Positions 34,865 through 46,590 are shown, numbered from the stretch's first letter. The stretch: DNA of 64,000 nucleotides from Gammaproteobacteria bacterium (GCA_041664965.1 JBAYJT010000002.1:2877-66876); one strand, 5' to 3'. Translations and numbers: made by a program. Notes: generated by a model not told the origin, from the sequence alone.

Positions 34865-35266
34865 TCAAGACGCGGTTGATCCTAGAATAGCCGGCTTTCT
34901 CCCTTTTTTTTGGTCTGCTCGCAGCAAACCCATACACATATAATTAACGCTAACGCTTTTGTCGACAACATTTACCACGCAAGTTGGTGAACAATTCTGC
35001 ATCTTAACGCTAATGGGAATCCACCAAGTTCCAGTGGTTTCATTGCACCAATGGCTATTTTTTAGTTTGCCAACTTTGGTACAAATTTGGCTATTTTTCG
35101 CTAAAGAAATAGCTTCAGTCAGACTCAGCTTAGATGTTGTATCTTTTTTTGTGCAATATTCTTCGGCTCTGGCTATCTGATTAATAAAAATCAAACAAAC
35201 ACTCAAAAGAACCAAACTCAACTTAAATTTACAACTCTTTGATTTTGAAGAAATTCTTGTAGACAT
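34865..35266 (-). CDS. small secreted Cys-rich hypothetical protein
   Basis: It has a signal-peptide-like LSLVLLSVCLIFINQIARA and 8 Cys in the mature part. It occupies the slot where kdsC usually lies. The first 12 codons come from family-A repeat copy 6. Confidence 0.5.
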   Translation of the reverse strand: MSTRISSKSKSCKFKLSLVLLSVCLIFINQIARAEEYCTKKDTTSKLSLTEAISLAKNSQICTKVGKLKNSHWCNETTGTWWIPISVKMQNCSPTCVVNVVDKSVSVNYMCMGLLRADQKKGRKPAILGSTAS

Positions 35267-35280: not shown

Positions 35281-36255
35281 TTAGGATAATCCAGCCCTTA
35301 AAATATCATGCATATGCACAACTCCTGCCAAACTGCCATCTTGTTTTAAAACAACCAACGATGTGATCGCATGTTTTTCCATCAAACGCAAAGCATCCAG
35401 CGCCAAAGCATTTTCCCGGATTGTTTTATATTTTTTGATCATCACATTCTGAATTTTTATTTCACGAAGATCACAAGACTTTTCAAGCACACGACGCAAG
35501 TCACCATCAGTAAAAATACCCACAGGAGCGTCTTTCAGGTCAACTACTAAAGTCATGCCTAGATGCTTACGCGTCATTTCCATTAAAGCTTCATTGATAG
35601 TAGATGTATCAGACACTTTAGGAACTTCTTTTCCTGTATGTATAAGATCGCCGACTTTCAGCAACAATCTCTTGCCTAAAGTTCCACCAGGATGTGATAG
35701 AGCAAAATCTTCAGCTGTAAATCCTCGAGCCTCAATAAGCGTAACCGCCAAGGCATCTCCCATAGCTAAAGCCGCTGTGGTACTTGCTGTTGGAGCAAGA
35801 CCAATTGGACAAGCTTCTTTGACAACGCTTACATCCAGATTAATAGTAGCTTCACGCGCTAGCGCTGAATTTGGGCTTCCAGTCAGAGCAATCAGGGGTA
35901 ATTGTAAGCGCTTTATTGCCGGCAAAATGGCTAGTATTTCTTGCGTATTTCCAGAATAAGAAATCGCTAAAACCACATCCTTAGGACTTAAAACGCCAAT
36001 ATCACCGTGGCTTGCCTCCCCTGGATGAACAAAAAAAGCGGGACTTCCAGTACTAGACAAAGTCGCAGCGATTTTACTTGCAACATGACTAGATTTCCCC
36101 ATACCAGTGACAACAATTCTGCCTTCACAAGCCAATAAATATTCACAAGCCTTAACAAAATTGGCATCAATACGAGAACTAAGCGCCAACACAGCGTCTG
36201 ACTCAATTTGCAGCACTTTCTTGGCCAATTGATAGATCTTTTGAGAATTTAGCAT
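35281..36255 (-). CDS. kdsD: arabinose-5-phosphate isomerase (SIS + tandem CBS)
   Basis: It has GRIVVTGMGKSSHVASKIAATLSSTGSPAFFVHPGEASHGD and C-terminal CBS pairs. Confidence 0.9.
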   Translation of the reverse strand: MLNSQKIYQLAKKVLQIESDAVLALSSRIDANFVKACEYLLACEGRIVVTGMGKSSHVASKIAATLSSTGSPAFFVHPGEASHGDIGVLSPKDVVLAISYSGNTQEILAILPAIKRLQLPLIALTGSPNSALAREATINLDVSVVKEACPIGLAPTASTTAALAMGDALAVTLIEARGFTAEDFALSHPGGTLGKRLLLKVGDLIHTGKEVPKVSDTSTINEALMEMTRKHLGMTLVVDLKDAPVGIFTDGDLRRVLEKSCDLREIKIQNVMIKKYKTIRENALALDALRLMEKHAITSLVVLKQDGSLAGVVHMHDILRAGLS

Positions 36256-36261
36256 TTTCGT

Positions 36262-38214
36262 CTAGATATTCTTAACTTTGGCAATCTGTTCTTGAAATAC
36301 TTTCACTTCTGCCAAAGCTTGTTTATAGAATTTGCTAATTATGACAGGGTCTTTCCCTTCCAGCAAATAATCATCTAATCGGGCACAAGCTTCTTGTGTA
36401 CGCTTCGCTCCACAATAGCTAGCCAAACCACGTATTTTATGCGTCATAACACGTAGGGCTTTAAAATCTTTGTTTTTATATATTAAAGTGAAAGATTTGA
36501 TTTTTCGCGGCAAATCTTTTTTAACGGAAGCAATTATAGTACGAATCATCTGTTCGTTATTTCCATAATTTTTACGCATCAGTACAAGGTTAATAATTTT
36601 ACCTGTAGTTGTGCTTTTCTTATCTGTCAAGACCTTGTTTGTTTTAGTTGGTTCTCTCCATCCCGAAATAAAAGTAACACAAAGATCCCTGGCTTTTTCT
36701 TCCGTTAAAGGCTTACTCAGCACAGCATTCATACCAACTTCCACACAATGTTTGGAATATCCTGCACTGCTATGAGCTGAAAGCGCAACTATCGGCACAA
36801 GATTATCTTTATTAACTTCTTGCTCACGAATACGCCTAGTTACTTCGTAGCCATCCATATCTGGCAATCCAATATCCATCAAAATAAGATCATAACTATT
36901 TGCTCTGGCTAGCTTTATAGCTTTAACACCATTGGATGCTATATCCACCGCGCATTTCATACGCCCTAAAATAATCCTACTCAGCTTCCCCATGAAAGCG
37001 TCATCTTCAACCAATAAAATCTTCCACTTTTTTCTTTTACTATTGGGCTTAGTTCTTTCCAGCACTGGCAAGTTATGAAGATTAGATATATCTCCTTGGG
37101 TTCCATGCTCTATACCAGAATCATCCTGTAATTTAGCCTCTTGCAAAGGAATCAAGCATATAAAAGCAGAACCTTTGCCCTTTTTACTCTCTACAGAAAT
37201 TGTACCGCCTAATTCTTCCACAAATTGCTTTACTATACTTAAACCTAAACCCGAACCAGGACAAGTCCCATTGTAGGAAGGAACTAGGCGCACAAAGCGC
37301 TCAAATATCTCCTCATTCTTTTCATCCGGTATCCCAATCCCTGTATCCCGCACAATGAGTCGAACGGTTATTTTATCAGCCTCTTTTTTAGCTAATTCTA
37401 CAGAAACCCTAACCTTACCCACAGAAGTAAATTTTAAAGCATTGTTAGTTAGTTCTAAGAGTATTCTCTGCAGCCTCATGCGATCCCCAAGAACATAACA
37501 TGGCAGATCCTTAGAATAACCGTATATAAATTCTAGCTTCTTCTCAGCAGCTTTAGCCCCATTCAATAAAACAATTTTATTTAGAGCATCTTTCAAATTA
37601 AATTTTTTATTAAGAAGCGGTAATTCACCAGACGTAGTTCGAATTGTATCCAAAATTTCATCCAGAAAATCAAAGAGAGTGCGGCCTGATGCTACAAGAT
37701 TATCGGCATATTCACGAGTTTTTTGCGGTTTATCAGCTTCTGCTTTAATAAGTTCTGCAAAGCCCACAATACCCGAAAGCGGAGTGCGAATATCATGACG
37801 CATGTTTTCTAAGAATTGAGATTTTGCCTCGTTGGCAGCCTCTGCTTGCTTTAATGCTTTCTCAAGCTTTTGTTCGGCAAGCTTGCGATCGGTGATGTCG
37901 AAACTTAATACTCTTATACCAACGCATTTTCCTTTATCAAAAAGAGGTTGTTTTATGGATAAATAATACCGCCCTTTAAATGGCTCTTCCTTTATAACTT
38001 TTGTTCCCACCCTCATTACTTCTTTGCAATGTTCCCAAGATGGAAGATCGATGTTTGCAGCATTTACAGAACCACGAGATATAGATGCAACCATTCGATT
38101 GTTTTGTACGAGATAGTCCCCATTAACGTCAATCACACTGTAATTAAAGTCTACTGAATCTAGGAAAAGCGAAAGTACATCGCCATTAGTTGTATCAAAA
38201 AGTTGATTGTCCAA
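36262..38214 (-). CDS. soluble hybrid sensor histidine kinase (PAS-HisKA-HATPase_c-REC-Hpt), copy 1
   Basis: It has a TTG start 6 nt after AAGGGAGGA. Motifs are the H-box NMRHDIRTPLSG, the N/G boxes DTGIGIP and GSGLGLSIV, the REC LILMDIGLPDMDG and the Hpt MTHKIRGLASYCGA. No hydrophobic segment is present. Confidence 0.88.
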   Translation of the reverse strand: MDNQLFDTTNGDVLSLFLDSVDFNYSVIDVNGDYLVQNNRMVASISRGSVNAANIDLPSWEHCKEVMRVGTKVIKEEPFKGRYYLSIKQPLFDKGKCVGIRVLSFDITDRKLAEQKLEKALKQAEAANEAKSQFLENMRHDIRTPLSGIVGFAELIKAEADKPQKTREYADNLVASGRTLFDFLDEILDTIRTTSGELPLLNKKFNLKDALNKIVLLNGAKAAEKKLEFIYGYSKDLPCYVLGDRMRLQRILLELTNNALKFTSVGKVRVSVELAKKEADKITVRLIVRDTGIGIPDEKNEEIFERFVRLVPSYNGTCPGSGLGLSIVKQFVEELGGTISVESKKGKGSAFICLIPLQEAKLQDDSGIEHGTQGDISNLHNLPVLERTKPNSKRKKWKILLVEDDAFMGKLSRIILGRMKCAVDIASNGVKAIKLARANSYDLILMDIGLPDMDGYEVTRRIREQEVNKDNLVPIVALSAHSSAGYSKHCVEVGMNAVLSKPLTEEKARDLCVTFISGWREPTKTNKVLTDKKSTTTGKIINLVLMRKNYGNNEQMIRTIIASVKKDLPRKIKSFTLIYKNKDFKALRVMTHKIRGLASYCGAKRTQEACARLDDYLLEGKDPVIISKFYKQALAEVKVFQEQIAKVKNI

Positions 38215-38253
38215 TTGATTTCCTCCCTTAAAAATTGTTTCACTTAAACAACG

Positions 38254-39462
38254 CTAGTTGCTTGGAACAACTTTTTGTGGCTGAGCAAATGTTGTACTAC
38301 CAGTAACTGCCATCTCTTGTTGCTGCGCCCTCTCCGCTTCCACAGCACGAATTAATACACTAAAGGGATCAACCTTCAGAGCACTAGGATCACTTATGTG
38401 TATTCTATATGAAATGTGAAATCCAATGAATTTTTGCGAATACTCCAGTGTAACAGGAGCAAACGATTTACTTACCTCTCCTTCGTAATTTTTTCTAGCT
38501 GCATCTATACTGGTTACTAATGTTGCTATAGCCTCCGCCCTTTTTGGTTCGTTAAATTGGATAACACATTCCCCCTTCCACACATGATTTTCTTTTGTAA
38601 AGGACATCTTTTCAGAAAAATCCGGAACCGGAGGAGAAGGCGATCGACCATTAAAAAAAGAACTTTTCCCTAGCAAACGCGGAGGACTACTTGGGACGGG
38701 GGGCCTACTAGAATTACTTCCTGATCCAGGTCTTACTGTTGGTGAAGGTGGTTTAAATTCATACCCCAAGTATAACGCACCAGGATATGGAGGATTACCC
38801 GTACCCACCAGCTTTTGTAACACATATCCGCTAGCGCTATTAAAACTAGGCGCAGGGTAGCAAACCACCTTGCCACAACATAAAAAAGCAGCACTTTCTG
38901 TAAAAAGGTATTCCTTAGCAGCTTCTACCGCTGCCCCTTTGTTTTGTTTATCTATTTGGTATCTATGAGAGTGTTCAAGAATAAGATCATCAACAATCTT
39001 CTTAAAAACTGGATCGGCACCATATAGCTTTGCTACATCTTCCTTCGCTCTAGGATATAGTTCATTATTTGTGATGTCTCGCCAATATAAAATATCTTCC
39101 TTCGATTTAAAGCCAAATGCTGGATCCAAATTATCTAACCTGCTAGCATTTTTGGCTATCCATTCATCATCTGCTTTTTTAGCTTCACCAGGCCCAACAT
39201 ATACTTCGAACAATCCCTCTCCGCTTAGCACTACTCGTACTTTCGAAATGGCCAATCGGGGCTGTCCTCCCTTTTCAATTGGCGCCAAAAGCCTATTCCT
39301 ATTAACTAGACCAATAAAATCATCAAGTTTTGCTCCAACCTGAACATTTTCACCTTTTCTATTTAGCCCCATGCTTAAAAACAAGTATAGCTCCACCGGT
39401 TGACCACCATTTTTTGTGTCAACAAAGGTAGACAAACTATCTGTAAATTTAGCTGTAAACAT
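38254..39462 (-). CDS. cyclodipeptide synthase (CDPS)-like protein with Pro/Ser-rich linker and unknown C-terminal domain (tentative)
   Basis: LFLS30MGL, E-Y185-LFT-E189-SAAF and VC-Y202-P203 match the positions and spacing of the AlbC catalytic S37, Y178, E182 and Y202(-P in XYP-type CDPSs). Residues ~228-283 are P/S-rich, followed by a ~120-aa unknown domain. Confidence 0.5.
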   Translation of the reverse strand: MFTAKFTDSLSTFVDTKNGGQPVELYLFLSMGLNRKGENVQVGAKLDDFIGLVNRNRLLAPIEKGGQPRLAISKVRVVLSGEGLFEVYVGPGEAKKADDEWIAKNASRLDNLDPAFGFKSKEDILYWRDITNNELYPRAKEDVAKLYGADPVFKKIVDDLILEHSHRYQIDKQNKGAAVEAAKEYLFTESAAFLCCGKVVCYPAPSFNSASGYVLQKLVGTGNPPYPGALYLGYEFKPPSPTVRPGSGSNSSRPPVPSSPPRLLGKSSFFNGRSPSPPVPDFSEKMSFTKENHVWKGECVIQFNEPKRAEAIATLVTSIDAARKNYEGEVSKSFAPVTLEYSQKFIGFHISYRIHISDPSALKVDPFSVLIRAVEAERAQQQEMAVTGSTTFAQPQKVVPSN

Positions 39463-39643
39463 GGTATTTATATCACTAAAGTTATACGAAATATTTTTAA
39501 ACCGTTGTTAGTCCAATCTAATTTAGGATTGAAATTAAAAGGGGAATCAATACAAAACTAGACACTTAAAACCACTCTTAGGCCTTAAGGAAAATGCCAT
39601 TATCCCTTATAATCTTATCCCTAAACAAACCTCTCACGCGCAC

Positions 39644-39706
39644 ATTATAACACAAAAACAAAGTAAGCATTAAACAGCCAAGTCTTACTCTTAAGATTAT
39701 TTTAAG
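39644..39706 (-). promoter_or_regulatory. conserved promoter region of CDPS-like gene 1: TTAA-N7-TTAA box, candidate -10 elements
   Basis: The minus strand reads cgcTTAAAATAATCTTAAGAGTaagacttggctgTTTAATgcttactttgtttttgTGTTATAATg. The same block is conserved at 43536-43597. Confidence 0.45.
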
Positions 39707-39733
39707 CGAATATTTAGCGTTGATGAAACACCT

Positions 39734-39784
39734 AAAAACATGTCTACATGTTTTCCTTATAAATCAAAAAGTTATAAAAATAAG
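39734..39784 (+). repeat. family-A repeat, copy 7
   Basis: The sequence is AAAAACATGTCTACATGTTTTCCTTATAAATCAAAAAGTTATAAAAATAAG. It contains the 8-bp inverted repeat AAAACATG/CATGTTTT. Confidence 0.8.
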
Positions 39785-39810
39785 ATCGAAAAAGGTCAAA
39801 AAATCGACTT

Positions 39811-41847
39811 CTAGATCTTTCTCACCCTCAAAATAGCTTTTTGAAAATCGCGGATTTCGACCAGACATTTTTTGTAGAGCTTTCCGATAGTCGAAAATTC
39901 ATTCCCTTCCAGCAAATAATCATCTAGTTTAGCACAAGCTCCTTGAGTACGAGCAGCTCCACAGTAGCTAGCCGAACCGCGTATTTTGTGTGTCATAATC
40001 TGTAAAGTCTTCAAATCTTTATTTTGATATGCACAAATGAAAGAATTTATTTTATTTGGTAAATCTTTTTTGATAGAAGCAAGTAAAGTCCGAACTGTCT
40101 TTTCATTATTTCCATAATTTTTACGCATCAGTGCAAGATCAATAATTTTACCTGTAACTTTGTGTGATTGGCCTCGAGGAGGTTTTTTTTCTTTTGTGGA
40201 TTCTGTCCATCCCGGAATAAAAGCACTACAAATATCTCTCGCTTTTTCTTCCGTGAAAGGCTTACTTAGCACTGCATTCATACCAACTTTCATACAATGC
40301 TGCGAGTATTCAGCGCTAGTGTGGGCCGAAAGCGCCACTATTGGCACAATATGGTCTTTCTTAACTTCTTGCTCACGGATATGCCTAGCTACCTCGTAGC
40401 CATCTATATCCGGCAATCCTATATCCATCAAAATAAGATCGTATCTATTTTCCCTAGCGAGATTTACGGCTTTAGCACCATCCACTGCTATATCTACCGC
40501 ACATTTCATACGCTCTAAAATAATTCTGCCTAGTTTCCCCATAAAAGCATCATCTTCAACTAACAAAACATTCCAATTTTTTCCTTTACGAGTTGTTTTT
40601 TCTTTTTGTTTTAGAGGCAAAATGGGCCTCATCAAAAAAGCTTTTTCTACATATCCTTCCACCTCCGCCGGCATATCAGAAGCATCCTGCAGCATGGCTT
40701 CCTGCAAAGAAATTACGCAAGTAAAAATCGAACCCTTACCCTCCTCACTCCTAACAGAAATTTCGCCCTTTAAATCCTCAAGAAATTGCTTAACAATAGT
40801 AAGCCCCAAGCCGGAACCTTGAGATATCCCTTTGAAAGATGGGGTTAAACGCGTAAAGCGTGTAAAAATGTCTTGCTTTCTCTTTTCAGAAAAACCCATG
40901 CCCGTATCTGCAACAATAAGTTTAATAGCTATGTCCGTTCCTTCTTTTTTAGCCAACTTTACGGAAATTTTAACTTCACCTTTGGAAGTAAATTTCAAAG
41001 CATTGCTCGTTAATTCTAAAAGGATCCGCTGTAACCTAACTGGATCTCCCACTATATACTCTGCTAACTTTTTATCGTAATCGTAGACAAGATTTAGTTT
41101 CTTGGTAGCTGCTTTAGCTTTCTGCAATAAAATAACTTTATTGAAAGCATCTTTCATATTAAATTTTTTCTTGAGAAGCGGAATCTCGCCTGATGTAGCT
41201 TTAATGGCATCTAGAATTTCATTGAGAAACTCAAATAATGTACGACTTGAGGCAATAAGATTATCTATGTATTCGCGCGTTTTTTCTGGTTTATCAGCCT
41301 CTGCTTTAATAAGTTCCGCAAAACCTAAAATCCCCGACAGGGGTGTACGCAAGTCATGTCGCATGTTTTCTAAAAACTGCGTTTTTGCTTCGTTGGCAGC
41401 TTCAGATTTCTTTAGAGCTTCTGCAAGCTTTTGCTCAGCAATTTTTCGGTCGGTGATGTCGATAGATACACCAAGAAGTCCAATTACATCTCCCTCGGAA
41501 TTGCGCAAGGGTTTTTTGATGCTAAAAAAATAAGTTTTAGTGCCATCAGGATTGAGATGAACTTCTTCCAATAATTCGGACTTATTGCTCTCCATAACTT
41601 TTTTGGAATTTTCCCAAGCTGGGTCAGCGCATAAATCAGAAGTGTGCTTGCCTATAAGTTCCTTAATGGAAGACAAACCTAAAATAGCCAACTCCTTGTC
41701 ATTTCCCCCAAGAAAAATCCCCTCTTTATCCACCCAATAGAAGGCAATTGGAAAATCTTGTAGCAAACTATCCATGGCCGCTTCTTTAGCTATGGACACG
41801 GCTTTTTGAGCAGTTAAATCTCGTATTGAATTGAAAGAATTTGGCAT
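39811..41847 (-). CDS. soluble hybrid sensor histidine kinase (PAS-HisKA-HATPase_c-REC-Hpt), copy 2
   Basis: It has an AAGGAG RBS. Motifs are the H-box NMRHDLRTPLSG, DTGMGFS and GSGLGLTIV, the REC LILMDIGLPDIDG and the Hpt MTHKIRGSASYCGA. No hydrophobic segment is present. It is a paralogue of 36262..38214. Confidence 0.88.
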   Translation of the reverse strand: MPNSFNSIRDLTAQKAVSIAKEAAMDSLLQDFPIAFYWVDKEGIFLGGNDKELAILGLSSIKELIGKHTSDLCADPAWENSKKVMESNKSELLEEVHLNPDGTKTYFFSIKKPLRNSEGDVIGLLGVSIDITDRKIAEQKLAEALKKSEAANEAKTQFLENMRHDLRTPLSGILGFAELIKAEADKPEKTREYIDNLIASSRTLFEFLNEILDAIKATSGEIPLLKKKFNMKDAFNKVILLQKAKAATKKLNLVYDYDKKLAEYIVGDPVRLQRILLELTSNALKFTSKGEVKISVKLAKKEGTDIAIKLIVADTGMGFSEKRKQDIFTRFTRLTPSFKGISQGSGLGLTIVKQFLEDLKGEISVRSEEGKGSIFTCVISLQEAMLQDASDMPAEVEGYVEKAFLMRPILPLKQKEKTTRKGKNWNVLLVEDDAFMGKLGRIILERMKCAVDIAVDGAKAVNLARENRYDLILMDIGLPDIDGYEVARHIREQEVKKDHIVPIVALSAHTSAEYSQHCMKVGMNAVLSKPFTEEKARDICSAFIPGWTESTKEKKPPRGQSHKVTGKIIDLALMRKNYGNNEKTVRTLLASIKKDLPNKINSFICAYQNKDLKTLQIMTHKIRGSASYCGAARTQGACAKLDDYLLEGNEFSTIGKLYKKCLVEIRDFQKAILRVRKI

Positions 41848-41891
41848 GATCAGCTCCTTGCTTGGAAGGTTATCTATATTATCTTAACAAT

Positions 41892-43373
41892 CTACTTGGA
41901 TGTTGGTCTAGTATTATTTTCAGCACCTCTAGTTGGAGAAGTAGGAGGAGATTTTGACTTAGATTTTTCCTGGGGAATGGGGGCGCGCCCACTTTCCTCT
42001 CTGCTAACAGCAGCAGCAGCTGCTGCAGCTGCTGCTACGGTAAAAAATAAAAACTTTCCACCACCACTAAGACAAAGTTCGGCCACAGGAGAACGAGTGC
42101 TACTAGAACTCGAGGTAACTGCGTCTTGTTGCGAGACTTCTTCAAGAACTGGGGCTAAATTACTGTTACCATGACTAGTTCCTGCACCGGATGGTGTGTC
42201 TGATAACAGTGTTGGATCGCTTGGTGGTGAAGTACTGAAACTACTGTTAACTTTACTTGCTGAAATACTTTCACTAACACTAGTAGACGGTGATTCAGCT
42301 CTTGAGGATGAAGAATTGGAAGACGTGGTGCCGGTAGAAGTACTGGAAAGTGCAGTACCTTCCTCATGACTTCGAGGAGTACTAGACCCGCTAGAAGATG
42401 GTGGTGATTGGCGACCAGATGGTAAACTATGGCTAATACCTGCTAATAATTGTTCTATCTTTAGTTTTCGCAGCTCGAGTTCTCCTGGGGTACCAACATC
42501 CAGCAATTCGTTGGTCAGTTTAAAATCCTTATAAACCTCTCCAATTCTTGCCCTTGCTATATACATTGGAGATCCTAATACCCCCCGATAAACTTCTATA
42601 GGAAATTTTTTCCATTGCTCACCATGTAAAAATATTTGAAAAGCACTCTCCTCCTGCATGTAATGTCCACAACAATCACTGATATTCTCCCAAGTTACAG
42701 TGTGATCTTCTATTTTTTTCCGCACGGCTGTCTTCTTAGCTGCTATTTTTTCGGAAAATCTACCTTTAACTTTGCCTAAGTTTTTTCTAAAACCGCTTAC
42801 ATCGTTCTGATTGGGAGTTGACCAGCTCCTAACTACGCCCAAGCACCTCTTAAATTCAGGCTCGCCAATAACATCTGACCAGTCAAGACACCATTCCTTC
42901 TCTCTACCTTGTCCTTTGGCAAAATCCTGCAATAACTTAACAACTACTTGGTTTTGTTTTTGCCATTCACTCCAATACAGTTTAGATATTCCAGCAGCTC
43001 TTATCTCAGCTGCCCCTAAGGTATCACCTTTTTCCCAGATACGTGGCATAACATTAAATCTATGTAAATGAGTGGTATTTAAAAGCGTAATGATTCCTTT
43101 TCTATTGGGATATTTCTTAAGTTCATTAATAAGAGTGTTCACAATTGCCAAAAGGGGGGTTCCAGTCTGATCCTCAGGAGTAAATTTTACCGCTAACTCA
43201 TTAGAACTGGAACTTGAAGAGGAAGAGGATGAAGTTGGTACAGAAGTCGTTGTACTTGAACTTTGAGGATTGTCGCTTTCCAATGCTGGACAAAATCCGC
43301 CCATGCTAATAGAAAGCAAAATATCTCCATCTTTTTCAAAAGGTTTTGTAGAGCTAAATTGCAACATAAACAA
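41892..43373 (-). CDS. CDPS-like protein with poly-Ser insertion and long Ser/Thr/Pro/Ala-rich C-terminal tail (tentative)
   Basis: It has LLSIS23MGG, H-Y238-MQE-E242-SAF and EV-Y262 (20 residues after the Glu, as in AlbC). A poly-Ser insertion covers aa ~31-58. Residues ~316-493 are low complexity and include an A9 run. Confidence 0.45.
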   Translation of the reverse strand: MFMLQFSSTKPFEKDGDILLSISMGGFCPALESDNPQSSSTTTSVPTSSSSSSSSSSNELAVKFTPEDQTGTPLLAIVNTLINELKKYPNRKGIITLLNTTHLHRFNVMPRIWEKGDTLGAAEIRAAGISKLYWSEWQKQNQVVVKLLQDFAKGQGREKEWCLDWSDVIGEPEFKRCLGVVRSWSTPNQNDVSGFRKNLGKVKGRFSEKIAAKKTAVRKKIEDHTVTWENISDCCGHYMQEESAFQIFLHGEQWKKFPIEVYRGVLGSPMYIARARIGEVYKDFKLTNELLDVGTPGELELRKLKIEQLLAGISHSLPSGRQSPPSSSGSSTPRSHEEGTALSSTSTGTTSSNSSSSRAESPSTSVSESISASKVNSSFSTSPPSDPTLLSDTPSGAGTSHGNSNLAPVLEEVSQQDAVTSSSSSTRSPVAELCLSGGGKFLFFTVAAAAAAAAAVSREESGRAPIPQEKSKSKSPPTSPTRGAENNTRPTSK

Positions 43374-43535
43374 ACATCACAAACAGGGTCATACGTCCAA
43401 ATTTCAATTAGCACCAAGGTTAAAAAGGGGAATCAAAACAAACCAGGTACTGAAAAATCCACTGCTAGCTTTTCAGTAAAGTGCTGTTATTTATCCCTTG
43501 GCAGCTATGTCCCTAAATGAATTTATTAATTTAGC

Positions 43536-43597
43536 ATTGTAACACAAAAATAAAACAAGCATTAAGCAGTCAGGTCTTACTCTTAAGATTATTTTAA
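43536..43597 (-). promoter_or_regulatory. conserved promoter region of CDPS-like gene 2 (TTAA-N7-TTAA box; TGTTACAAT)
   Basis: The minus strand reads ctaTTAAAATAATCTTAAGAGTaagacctgactgCTTAATgcttgttttatttttgTGTTACAATg. Confidence 0.45.
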
Positions 43598-43626
43598 TAG
43601 GATATTTAATCGTTGATGAGAGTCCT

Positions 43627-43677
43627 AAAAACATGTCTACGTGTTTTCTTTATTTTTCAATAAGTTATATTTTCTTT
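43627..43677 (+). repeat. family-A repeat, copy 8
   Basis: The sequence is AAAAACATGTCTACGTGTTTTCTTTATTTTTCAATAAGTTATATTTTCTTT. Confidence 0.8.
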
Positions 43678-43800
43678 AGGGTACAGACGCGATTAATCGC
43701 ATCTGTACTTATGATCAAAGAGTTTTCTAGGCAAAAACAAATTTTCTGGTTATTATAATCGCCTGTGCTTTTAGTTTTAATTTTTTAACATGACGATGTT

Positions 43801-44604
43801 ATGGCTGCTACTCTCGATAACTTAGTAAAAATTCAAGGACTGAACTTTCAGCGCGGTGAGCGTTATATCTTCAAAAACGTTAATGTCGACATACCTCGCG
43901 GCAAAATCGTCGCTATCATGGGACCATCTGGTTCCGGTAAAACCACACTACTGCGCTTAATCAGCGCGCAGCTAACGCCCAAATCTGGCACTATTTTGGT
44001 CGACGATACCAACATGTTTAAATTGCGTCGCCGAGCTCTCTATAAAATGCGCGAAAGCATTGGTTTTCTTTTTCAAAGCGGCGCTCTTTTTACAAATCTA
44101 AACGTCTTCGAAAACGTAGCTTTTCCACTCCGCGAACATACTAAATTACCAGAAGAAATGATTCACGATTTGGTCTTAATGCAACTAGAAACTGTGGGAC
44201 TACGAGGTGCACGCGATCTCATGCCTAGCGAACTTTCTGGCGGAATGTCGCGCCGAGTAGCCTTAGCAAGAGCTTTGGCACTAAACCCAAAACTCATGCT
44301 TTATGACGAGCCGTTTACTGGCCAAGATCCGATAACCATGGGCGTTTTGGTAAAATTAATTAAACACCTAAATGACATTTTGGGCTTAACTTCCATTATT
44401 GTATCTCATGACGTAGCCGAAACCGCTAGTATTGCCGATTATATTTATTTAATTTCTGAGGGACAAATCGTCTCTTCCGGATCGCCCAAAGAAATTTTTA
44501 CTGACAAAACACCTTGGGTAAACCAGTTTGTACACGGACTAGCCGATGGCGTAGTACCTTTTCACTTTCCAGCTGTTCCCTTTGCCGAGGATTTACACCT
44601 GTGA
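43801..44604 (+). CDS. mlaF: phospholipid ABC transporter ATPase MlaF
   Basis: It has Walker A GPSGSGKTT, signature LSGGMSRR and Walker B MLYDEP. It is the first gene of the mla cluster. Confidence 0.9.
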   Translation: MAATLDNLVKIQGLNFQRGERYIFKNVNVDIPRGKIVAIMGPSGSGKTTLLRLISAQLTPKSGTILVDDTNMFKLRRRALYKMRESIGFLFQSGALFTNLNVFENVAFPLREHTKLPEEMIHDLVLMQLETVGLRGARDLMPSELSGGMSRRVALARALALNPKLMLYDEPFTGQDPITMGVLVKLIKHLNDILGLTSIIVSHDVAETASIADYIYLISEGQIVSSGSPKEIFTDKTPWVNQFVHGLADGVVPFHFPAVPFAEDLHL

Positions 44605-46056: not shown

Positions 46057-46590
46057 ATGGAAACGTTTTGGACTATACTATCTTCAGCTCTTGTAAGCCT
46101 GATTATCAGTGCTGTTTCGATTGCTTTATTTTTAGGTAAGTATAAACAAAAAGTTGATACACATGAAAAAAGCCTAGAAAAACATGATAATAGAATAATC
46201 GAATTAAGCGATCGTATCTCCAAAGTAGAAGGTGGCCTTGATAGGGACAGAGCTCACAGTGATTATATACAAAAAAAGAGTCCTCTAGGCCTCACTGAAA
46301 AAGGCAAGGCCTTGCTGTTAGATAGTACCGGAAAAGATTATGTAGACAAACATAAAGCTCAACTGATTGAAAGCATAAAATCCACGAATCCTAGAACAGC
46401 CTACGATGTCCAAGAACTCTCCAAAAAAGTTATACAAAAAGAATCCAATACTGACGATTTTAGTCCACTAAAAAACTATATCTTTAACCAGGGACTAGAT
46501 CTAAATTTACTTATTGATATTTTGGGAATATACCTGAGAGACATTGCGTTAAAAGAACTGGGATTTAATATCAATGACATTAAGGATTAA
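46057..46590 (+). CDS. hypothetical membrane-anchored protein inserted between mlaD and mlaC
   Basis: It has an N-terminal TM helix (ILSSALVSLIISAVSIALFLG), a coiled-coil-like stretch and a ~100-aa C-terminal domain. No family was recognised. Confidence 0.55.
   Translation: METFWTILSSALVSLIISAVSIALFLGKYKQKVDTHEKSLEKHDNRIIELSDRISKVEGGLDRDRAHSDYIQKKSPLGLTEKGKALLLDSTGKDYVDKHKAQLIESIKSTNPRTAYDVQELSKKVIQKESNTDDFSPLKNYIFNQGLDLNLLIDILGIYLRDIALKELGFNINDIKD

Follow-up and report, generated by a model that had tools for sequence, protein, structure and literature searches.

The locus considered here raises the question of what a gene of no assigned function and a gene for a soluble sensor kinase do together, twice over, in one place in a genome. 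The window analyzed is a stretch of 64,000 nucleotides (nt) from Gammaproteobacteria bacterium (GCA_041664965.1 JBAYJT010000002.1:2877-66876), and between its mlaF and kdsD genes the minus strand carries two units, each consisting of a conserved leader, an unannotated open reading frame (ORF) and a soluble hybrid histidine kinase with PAS, HisKA, HATPase, REC and Hpt domains. Unit A comprises ORF2 and a kinase of 678 amino acids (aa), here HK678, and unit B comprises ORF1 and a kinase of 650 aa, here HK650; both ORFs are listed in NCBI as a "hypothetical protein" of a gammaproteobacterial metagenome-assembled genome, and feature coordinates are collected in Table 1. The patterns detected are, on balance, probably those of two paralogous two-gene cassettes in which a cyclodipeptide synthase (CDPS)-like producer and a PAS-kinase sensor form a signaling module. 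Taken with its relatives, the locus points to an uncharacterized small-molecule signaling system in Legionella-like intracellular bacteria.

Evidence that ORF1 and ORF2 are related to CDPSs, and to each other, came from profiles rather than from single sequences. BLASTP found no similarity between ORF1 and ORF2, phmmer of ORF2 alone against PDB returned nothing, that of ORF1 alone reached CDPS structures at E ~0.9, and a three-sequence profile of ORF2-type proteins had no match. Word-indexed searches of 5.8 billion protein clusters gave one relative each for ORF1 and ORF2 besides the window's own protein. Profile scans of the contigs of GTDB species representatives, made with the CDPS-like profile and a PAS profile, and pattern-based scans gave no relative, and that collection therefore seems to lack the lineage. 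When 1.84 billion representative proteins were searched exhaustively by HMMER with a mixed four-sequence profile, only 15 were recovered, which sort into a type-1 group with ORF1, a type-2 group with ORF2, and two ordinary-length CDPSs matched at ~1e-6; homology is visible only because this search supplied more family members. A match of the same search to P0010, a 2153-aa repeat protein, was spurious and was set aside. Type-1 and type-2 profiles were then separate constructions, the latter from eight sequences, with no known CDPS in either. Against PDB the type-2 profile matched Rgry-CDPS (5mlp, E 2.4e-12) and Fdum-CDPS (5ocd, E 1.3e-7), and the type-1 profile matched 5mlp (1.1e-8), 5mlq (3.8e-8) and 5ocd (4.4e-8). 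A hidden Markov model (HMM) made from ORF2-type sequences alone recovered ORF1 among all window ORFs with E 7e-7, so ORF1 and ORF2 are mutually homologous, as had been supposed in an earlier, sequence-only reading of this stretch that described the two as barely alignable.

Curated models gave no match to PF16715 for either protein, and ORF1 matched TIGR04539 with E 6e-5 and 22.6 bits, against a cut-off of 45. This says little, because most of the members scanned, including an orthologue of a proven CDPS, also fail: in a scan of 12 members that included this Rgry-like CDPS, one reached PF16715 (E 0.083) and four reached TIGR04539. The AlphaFold models were of good confidence over the N-terminal domain (pLDDT ~90 for ORF1 and 88 for ORF2), and their Foldseek comparisons with PDB gave CDPSs throughout the top of the list, namely the top 48 for ORF1 (best E 7.5e-10, target-normalized TM score 0.70-0.75) and the top 34 for ORF2 (E 6.9e-6, TM ~0.7). 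Structures of the XYP subfamily ranked first for both models.

The catalytic residues of CDPSs are S37, Y178, E182 and Y202 in AlbC/Snou numbering (PMC13062777). Their equivalents are S30, Y185, E189 and Y202 in ORF1 and S23, Y238, E242 and Y262 in ORF2, exactly where the sequence-only reading had placed them, and they are in register with the residues of Rgry and Nbra both in HMM alignments and in a 10-sequence alignment. The positions of S30, E189 and Y202 are invariant in type 1, type 2 and plain CDPSs, and the Tyr (Y185/Y238) is present in both window proteins. At the XYP signature X40/P203, ORF1 reads C-Y202-P203. Profiles, Foldseek and the alignment of this tetrad thus agree with the CDPS identity that had been read from three short motifs, and by these profiles and models ORF1 and ORF2 are real, very divergent CDPS homologues on the XYP side of the superfamily. 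We propose that they synthesize a cyclodipeptide-type molecule from aminoacyl-tRNAs.

The arrangement of the CDPS-like genes recurs across relatives. In the window the gap between ORF2 and the HK678 gene is 44 nt, with an AAGGAG ribosome-binding site (RBS) 6 nt ahead of the start codon, and that between ORF1 and the HK650 gene is 39 nt, with a AAGGGAGGA RBS at the same distance; no terminator-like site lies within either gap, and the enzyme and kinase genes of each unit are probably co-transcribed. The strand, the extents and lengths of the four ORFs, and these gaps and RBSs, were all as first described. Counting only family members with downstream DNA (one contig was too short to judge), 12 independent CDPS-like genes are each directly followed by a PAS kinase gene; the spacing ranges between an overlap of 32 nt and a gap of 96 nt. 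The set comprises the two pairs of the window, two in the syntenic locus L001, one each for the family proteins P0002 (locus L004), P0005 (L006), P0007 (L007-9), P0009 (L010), P0012 (L015-17) and P0014 (L018-19), and two in L020. One of the L020 pairs involves P0013, which shares ~80% identity across its whole length with the crystallized Rickettsiella grylli CDPS (Rgry-CDPS), the producer of cFF/cFL (PMC7566563). The P0013 gene overlaps the beginning of the gene for a PAS-HisKA-HATPase-REC kinase of 498 aa (L020, 6755-8251), and the second CDPS and kinase pair lies 2.6 kb upstream. The plain CDPS P0011 has no kinase neighbor, and tblastn of P0011 and P0013 against plasmids, made to reach an annotated Legionella CDPS neighborhood, found a sponge-symbiont plasmid only, or nothing.

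In two lineages the two functions are joined in one polypeptide. P0006, whose metagenome also yielded the L002 copy of the L001-type locus, has the order PAS, type-1 CDPS, HK650-type PAS, HisKA and HATPase, and a 938-aa ORF in L014 has the order type-2 CDPS-like domain, HK678-type PAS, HisKA, HATPase and REC. The N-terminal domain of the latter is divergent but type-2-like (17 bits, p ~2e-7 in a single-target test). Type 1 is always beside an HK650-type PAS and type 2 beside an HK678-type PAS, and the HK650-type PAS is also found on a different kinase core (L004, P0006). Comparison of kinases between the two syntenic genomes gives the same picture: HK678 and HK677 share 79% identity in the core, 56% in the PAS and 31% in the partner enzymes, and HK678 and HK661 share 59%, 73% and 48%, respectively. 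The PAS thus tracks the CDPS subtype and not the kinase core, so the enzyme gene and the PAS-coding segment behave as one cassette. From these sequence comparisons, a CDPS-like gene together with the neighboring PAS would appear to be the functional unit, which has passed from one kinase core to another and become a single polypeptide in two lineages, and the co-variation suggests that synthase and kinase partners are truly cognate.

Several neighbors of these genes are of interest in their own right. A gene for a PQ-loop (SemiSWEET-like) protein of 100-103 aa lies directly upstream in L014 (1823-2125) and in L015 (423-734; also L016 and L017); the proteins are 50% identical and are candidate transporters of the product. 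Directly upstream of the P0006 gene, L005 (8893-9909) encodes a protein of 338 aa that contains part of a receiver domain, a candidate partner regulator. Between the two CDPS/kinase pairs of L020 (5155-5658) is a 167-aa ORF with a LuxR-type helix-turn-helix-like fragment (SPRTIKYHRANITKKL) and a truncated copy of the kinase PAS; it looks like the remnant of a further duplication, and its combination of helix-turn-helix and PAS recalls VqmA. In L022 (6001-8465) the P0011 gene is convergent with that for a 602-aa adenylate/guanylate cyclase-domain protein and adjoins a class II aminoacyl-tRNA synthetase gene (Pfam tRNA-synt_2), which is another possible link between CDPSs and signaling.

The kinases are 59% identical overall, with 65% in the core and 37% in the N-terminal PAS part, close to the two-thirds estimated by eye and with the PAS far more diverged, as had been noted. 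HisKA, HATPase_c, Response_reg and Hpt are above the Pfam gathering cut-offs in both, the motifs MRHD(I/L)RTPL, DLILMDIGLPD and HKIRG are present, and the H-box His, the REC Asp region and the Hpt His motif are kept. No hydrophobic or membrane segment was detected in either kinase (19-residue Kyte-Doolittle maximum 0.9-1.0, below 1.3). Pfam does not find a PAS in HK650, but by hhalign its N-terminus is a homologue of the HK678-type PAS (probability 98.6%, E 7e-16). The domain that follows P0002, an orthologue of ORF1, shares 71% identity with this N-terminus, and a related domain, at 55% identity in the alignment, comes after the CDPS domain in the fusion P0006. Pfam, hhalign for HK650 and hydropathy therefore uphold the domain content and soluble character first assigned to the two proteins.

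The PAS domains offer a suggestion as to what the kinases detect. A profile of six HK678-type PAS domains had only three PDB matches below E 0.01, namely 6UGL, 6KJU and 6IDE (E ~8e-5), with the next PAS at 0.018, and hhalign of the HK678-type PAS with VqmA gave a probability of 95.9% over 112 columns. A word-indexed search with the PAS profile returned short PAS fragments only. 6UGL and 6IDE are Vibrio cholerae VqmA with its bound autoinducer DPO (3,5-dimethylpyrazin-2-ol) (10.1101/2019.12.19.881847), and 6KJU, near-identical to them in sequence, gives the same alignment. The ligand-contact residues of VqmA are F67, F99 and K101, of which K101 forms a hydrogen bond to the carbonyl of the ligand and is indispensable, not even Arg being tolerated (10.1101/2019.12.19.881847). 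In the alignment the invariant K111, within the S-I-K-K-P motif, falls opposite K101, and the HPxPDG motif is common to both. Since the K101 equivalent is kept and those of F67 and F99 are not, the HK678-type pocket looks suited to a heterocycle that is akin to DPO, though not the same, and carries a carbonyl, as a diketopiperazine would. We infer that the PAS domain binds the product of the partner enzyme.

The mechanism proposed for each cassette begins with the CDPS-like enzyme, which by means of an acyl-enzyme Ser and the Tyr/Glu/Tyr residues would turn aminoacyl-tRNAs into a small cyclodipeptide-type ligand. The N-terminal VqmA-like PAS of the partner kinase would bind this ligand, and ligand occupancy would set the output of the HisKA-HATPase-REC-Hpt phosphorelay toward a putative response regulator, which may feed back on promoter boxes common to both leaders. 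The PQ-loop genes upstream in two distant loci favor export of the signal, i.e. cell-cell signaling. The fusions and the all-cytoplasmic set-up favor an internal role as a readout of tRNA charging. The producer/sensor idea of the sequence-only reading gains considerably from the invariant gene order of the 12 pairs, the two fusions, the co-variation of PAS and CDPS and the VqmA-like PAS, although it is not provable in silico.

A number of observations weigh against this interpretation. The alignments used as AlphaFold input were shallow (10-12 sequences) and held two true CDPSs, which qualifies the structural matches. Deeper type-2 members and the L014 fusion have Ile, Phe or Cys at the position of Y178, so some members are possibly inactive; the conservation of Ser, Tyr-x3-Glu and Tyr in homologues, on which the sequence-only reading had staked its case, therefore holds invariantly for the Ser, the Glu and Y202 and breaks down at this Tyr. 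Plain CDPSs have a Gly two residues ahead of the catalytic Ser (G-I-S); here that position is occupied by Phe or Ser. The Tyr-Pro hallmark of the XYP subfamily, present in ORF1, is replaced in ORF2 by V-Y-R; the ORF2 orthologue P0004 has Y-P. XYP CDPSs hold the tRNA acceptor stem with basic beta2 and beta7 strands (PMC7566563, PMC13062777), and by a crude charge count the first 25 residues have a net charge of -1 in both ORF1 and ORF2 compared with +5 in the Rgry-like enzyme, and the whole CDPS domain has 0 and +4 compared with +11. In the PAS, the stacking residues of VqmA are not kept (F67 aligns with A77, with the invariant W78 adjacent, and F99 with S109), and the similarity of the HK650-type PAS to VqmA in direct comparison is not significant. 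No response regulator was identified, nor any transporter in the window, which lacks the PQ-loop gene. Covalent fusion of producer and receptor is, in addition, unusual for a freely diffusible signal.

Beyond the CDPS domain both proteins run into Ser/Pro/Thr-rich tails that are predicted to be disordered. In ORF1 the C-terminal region, aa 282-387, is modeled with low confidence, at a pLDDT of only ~50-60. A Gly/Ser-Phe-Phe (FF) motif, in the forms SSFF, LPFF, GSFF, HGFF, GSFFF and KFLFF, lies C-terminal to the CDPS domain in nearly all members of both types. It is found at aa ~266-271 of ORF1 (nt ~38650-38667), at aa ~436-442 of ORF2, and in P0002, P0004, P0005, P0007, P0008, P0014, P0015 and the 303-aa CDPS of L020, within linkers that are rich in Ser and Pro and otherwise disordered; a helix (VFYFFNTETAVEAARV) comes next in several type-2 proteins. 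The motif could serve for docking, or could correspond to the C-terminal helix of Rgry-CDPS that packs on catalytic loop 1. The extreme C-termini are also alike among paralogues (...RPTSK, RPKSN, RPTSS, VVPSN, AKTN, PPKN). Two homopolymeric runs are seen in ORF2, a poly-Ser run within the CDPS domain (aa 47-56) and a nine-Ala run in the tail, encoded by an imperfect GCN repeat (42008-42036), at a place where the orthologues form an ordinary amphipathic helix; slippage could alter the length of either run.

Some alternative explanations dispense with a released signal. It is possible, if rather unlikely, that the CDPS-like protein and the PAS together act as an intracellular sensor of tRNA charging, in which a cyclodipeptide made from specific aminoacyl-tRNAs, or an acyl or dipeptidyl group held on the Ser, is read on the spot by the neighboring or fused PAS and the phosphorelay reports amino-acid sufficiency; if true, this would be a bacterial counterpart of GCN2, with a cyclodipeptide as second messenger and not as secreted natural product. 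There might, alternatively, be no free signal at all, the CDPS-like input domain binding charged or uncharged tRNA, or being aminoacylated on its Ser, and signaling by contact with the PAS. This too we hold to be doubtful. Such a sensor would be analogous to the HisRS-like domain of GCN2; its tether would be the tail, rich in Ser and Pro, and the FF motif in it, replaced by a covalent link in the fusions. Sensing by direct contact would account for two independent fusions that put a CDPS-like domain and a PAS kinase in one polypeptide and that are without the long tail, the PAS coming directly after. The co-variation of PAS and CDPS subtypes is what a protein-protein interface would be expected to produce, the loss of the Y178 equivalent in several type-2 members is compatible with it, and all components are cytoplasmic. 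Amino-acid starvation is, moreover, the classic differentiation cue in Legionella-type bacteria. However, the invariant Ser, Glu and Y202 suggest that catalysis is kept, and the eroded basic strands weigh against tight tRNA binding as much as against catalysis. An orthologue of a catalytically proven CDPS occurs in the same arrangement, the PAS resembles a small-molecule receptor in which the ligand-anchoring Lys is kept, and there are PQ-loop transporter genes at some loci.

Other explanations loosen the tie of the enzyme to the kinase. The kinases could be ordinary pathway regulators, the PAS reading an unrelated cue (redox, oxygen or a metabolite) and switching on the cyclodipeptide gene, with the product acting on host or competitors. 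Biosynthetic genes are often linked to their own regulators and the conserved promoter boxes suggest regulated expression, and host manipulation has been proposed by Aravind and colleagues for the CDPSs of intracellular bacteria, all of them stand-alone (PMC2922099). We nevertheless think it distinctly improbable, in that an unrelated cue gives no reason for the PAS to co-diversify with the enzyme subtype across swapped kinase cores, or for two fusions, and the PAS is closest to an autoinducer receptor. No tailoring enzymes were found among the called genes of the loci examined, where the only candidate transporters are the PQ-loop genes of L014 and L015-17. That the CDPS-like proteins are effectors translocated by Dot/Icm to act on host aminoacyl-tRNAs, with a regulatory or incidental linkage to the kinase, is very improbable indeed. 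Such a role would suit a Legionellales-like lineage, in which a related genome has an IcmW gene 4 kb from a fusion gene and an ankyrin-repeat protein nearby, and the long, eukaryote-like Ser/Thr/Pro-rich tails with similar extreme C-termini among paralogues. It does not suit a domain fused to cytoplasmic kinases in two lineages, nor a gene order with short, RBS-bearing gaps that indicates translation alongside the kinase. The IcmW gene itself, in L005 (16121-16573), lies downstream of the P0006 gene and shows this lineage to possess a type IVB (Dot/Icm) secretion system. A producer and sensor pair communicating through a cyclodipeptide-type ligand remains the explanation that we prefer.

Expression of the two producer and sensor cassettes may be under common control. 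Their leaders were said to be conserved between copies and are 65% identical over 328 aligned nt, rising to 82-88% in the promoter-proximal 120 nt (39770-39650); the coding regions downstream are not alignable by BLASTP. The conserved part consists of an extended -10 element, a TTAAAATAATCTTAAGA box and a GTAGACATGTTTTTAGG box, and ahead of homologous genes in L001, L006 and L008 the -10 element recurs, as does, in most, the TTAAAATAATCTTAAGA box. The shared boxes would permit joint, possibly auto-regulated expression of both units. In the 5' untranslated region (UTR) of ORF1 there is a terminator-like hairpin with a U-rich tail (39589-39565, minus strand), ~100 nt ahead of the ORF1 start, and the ORF2 leader has a hairpin at the equivalent position (~43455-43480). 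The stem is compensatory between leaders (CUUAA...UUAAG for ORF1, CUGAAAA...UUUUCAG for ORF2 and UGAAAA...UUUUCA in L006), and as predicted from these sequences the hairpin may be an attenuator. Rfam had no match over 36000-44000, RNAalifold gave no consensus structure for the whole 5' UTR, and single-sequence z-scores were unremarkable, so that the local hairpin alone remains as a lead.

Table 1. Features of the two units and their flanks, in window coordinates, listed in the direction of transcription of the units.
Feature	Position	Strand	Remarks
mlaF (flank)	43801-44604	+	divergently transcribed
Unit A leader/promoter (mlaF/ORF2 intergenic)	43374-43800	-	conserved sequence; putative promoter function
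Unit A GTAGACATGTTTTTAGG box	43640-43624	-	
Unit A TTAAAATAATCTTAAGA box	43597-43581	-	contains palindrome TCTTAAGA
Unit A extended -10, TGtTACAAT	43544-43536	-	followed by ~165-nt 5' UTR
ORF2 (type-2 CDPS-like)	41892-43373	-	493 aa from TTG; NCBI: 491 aa from ATG at 43367
ORF2 CDPS-fold domain, ~aa 1-311	~42435-43367	-	carries poly-Ser insertion
ORF2 tail, 180 aa	after ~aa 311	-	Ser/Thr/Pro-rich, with GGKFLFF and poly-Ala run
HK678, hybrid histidine kinase	39811-41847	-	PAS-HisKA-HATPase_c-REC-Hpt; ORF call and Pfam
HK678 PAS, ~aa 25-135	41443-41775	-	Pfam PAS_4, PAS_9, PAS; invariant AWENS, HPNPDG, S-I-K-K-P
Unit B leader/promoter	39463-39810	-	
Unit B GTAGACATGTTTTTAGG box	39747-39731	-	
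Unit B TTAAAATAATCTTAAGA box	39705-39689	-	
Unit B extended -10, TGtTATAAT	39652-39644	-	
ORF1 (type-1 CDPS-like), 402 aa	38254-39462	-	ORF call, profile, Foldseek
ORF1 CDPS-fold domain, aa 1-239	38746-39462	-	AlphaFold and Foldseek
ORF1 linker, aa 243-280		-	Pro/Ser-rich, disordered, with SSFF
HK650, hybrid histidine kinase	36262-38214	-	PAS-like-HisKA-HATPase_c-REC-Hpt; ORF call and Pfam
HK650 divergent PAS, ~aa 10-115	37870-38187	-	hhalign to HK678-type PAS
kdsD (SIS and CBS domains; flank outside module)	35281-36255	-	

The block is flanked by genes for MlaF/E/D/C on one side and for KdsD, LptC, LptA, LptB and HPF on the other. The kdsD start follows the HK650 stop after only 6 nt (36255-36262), a spacing found also in L001; kdsD is thus possibly co-transcribed, and kdsD-lptCAB may be read through from the signaling operon. 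The block had been taken for an accessory insertion, a view for which there is now little to be said, in that G+C is 0.36-0.43 across block and flanks and a related genome has a block of different content at the same mlaF/kdsD site. Recent horizontal insertion is not supported, the G+C of the block being not deviant from that of the flanks. Three further proteins of the neighborhood have no Pfam match. A Cys-rich ORF of 133 aa, which has a hydrophobic segment at its N-terminus (34865-35266, minus strand), lies between kdsD and lptC in the kdsC position of E. coli, with a 125-aa counterpart at the same place in L001. A 177-aa ORF (46057-46590, plus strand) lies between mlaD and mlaC, where L001 has no gene. 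In L001 (4960-5931) a 323-aa protein is encoded between mlaF and the first CDPS-like gene of that syntenic genome; it has no CDPS domain and no window counterpart, and carries two VF(Y/W)FF-plus-helix motifs as in the CDPS tails, in Ser/Pro-rich surroundings.

CDPSs have so far been studied almost wholly as natural-product enzymes, and no cognate receptor for a CDPS product is described in the literature searched. This locus and its relatives offer a testable answer in the form of a dedicated cytoplasmic receptor kinase beside, or fused to, the CDPS. Assays of ligand binding and phosphorylation are feasible at once because one pair contains the orthologue of Rgry-CDPS, an enzyme of known structure and products (cFF/cFL). 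The analysis also defines two unannotated protein families, extends the sequence space in which CDPSs can be recognized, and describes use of a VqmA-type PAS outside Vibrio, with a kinase output.

Among known systems, the closest relatives of the enzymes are the XYP CDPSs (Rgry 5MLP, Nbra 5MLQ/9I5M and Fdum 5OCD), with which ORF1 and ORF2 share a Rossmann-type fold related to class Ic aminoacyl-tRNA synthetases (aaRS), profile similarity and the register of the tetrad; ORF1 also shares the Y-P, and the Rgry-CDPS orthologue stands beside a PAS kinase as the window proteins do. The window proteins differ in having only 12-20% identity to these enzymes, falling below Pfam and TIGRFAM cut-offs, in a neutral N-terminal strand and the Y-R of ORF2, and in insertions, including the poly-Ser loop, and C-terminal extensions of 85-180 aa that are mostly disordered. 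Insertions and an extra C-terminal domain of unexplained function have been reported for the cAA-type XYP CDPSs of Legionellaceae (Gondry et al. 2018, PMC5816076), but the sequences here are far more divergent and no kinase partner was reported there (PMC5816076). Full-text literature searches found no paper characterizing a CDPS/kinase pair, CDPS-kinase fusions or a link to VqmA. The claim that no such module has been described stands as regards characterization, but the association itself has been mentioned, since in the survey by Skinnider et al. 2018 PAS is one of the Pfam domains without a biosynthetic role that most often lie close to CDPS genes, and one sentence there suggests quorum sensing (PMC5767969).

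GCN2, the eukaryotic eIF2-alpha kinase with a HisRS-like domain, resembles P0006 and the L014 fusion in that an aaRS-like domain is joined to a kinase, but it involves another aaRS class and another kinase superfamily, with no homology, and catalytic residues are kept here, so that the likeness is one of analogy only. The sequence-only reading had compared the locus with CqsA/CqsS of Vibrio and LqsA/LqsS of Legionella, in which linked synthase and sensor kinase genes feed a phosphorelay, as the 12 pairs and two fusions in the same order would do. CqsS and LqsS are membrane receptors of extracellular alpha-hydroxyketones made by enzymes dependent on pyridoxal phosphate. The comparison is sound as to linked genes and otherwise loose, because the kinases here are cytoplasmic; the enzymes, too, are unrelated to those synthases, and the likeness is in genetic logic only. 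DPO-VqmA of Vibrio cholerae is the closer precedent, with a cytoplasmic PAS receptor that is the best solved match of the PAS studied here, a small dipeptide-derived N-heterocycle as ligand, and a carbonyl-binding Lys and HPxPDG motif that are kept in the HK678-type PAS. Its output is a LuxR-type helix-turn-helix, whereas here the PAS is followed by HisKA-HATPase-REC-Hpt, and the kinases are thus relatives of the VqmA sensor domain only; F67 and F99 are not kept. The enzyme for DPO is Tdh, while the presumed synthase here is the adjacent CDPS homologue. DPO itself derives from threonine and alanine (10.1101/2019.12.19.881847). The system described here would therefore work most like DPO-VqmA, with a kinase output and a linked synthase, and is not categorically new, being a synthase and receptor signaling pair.

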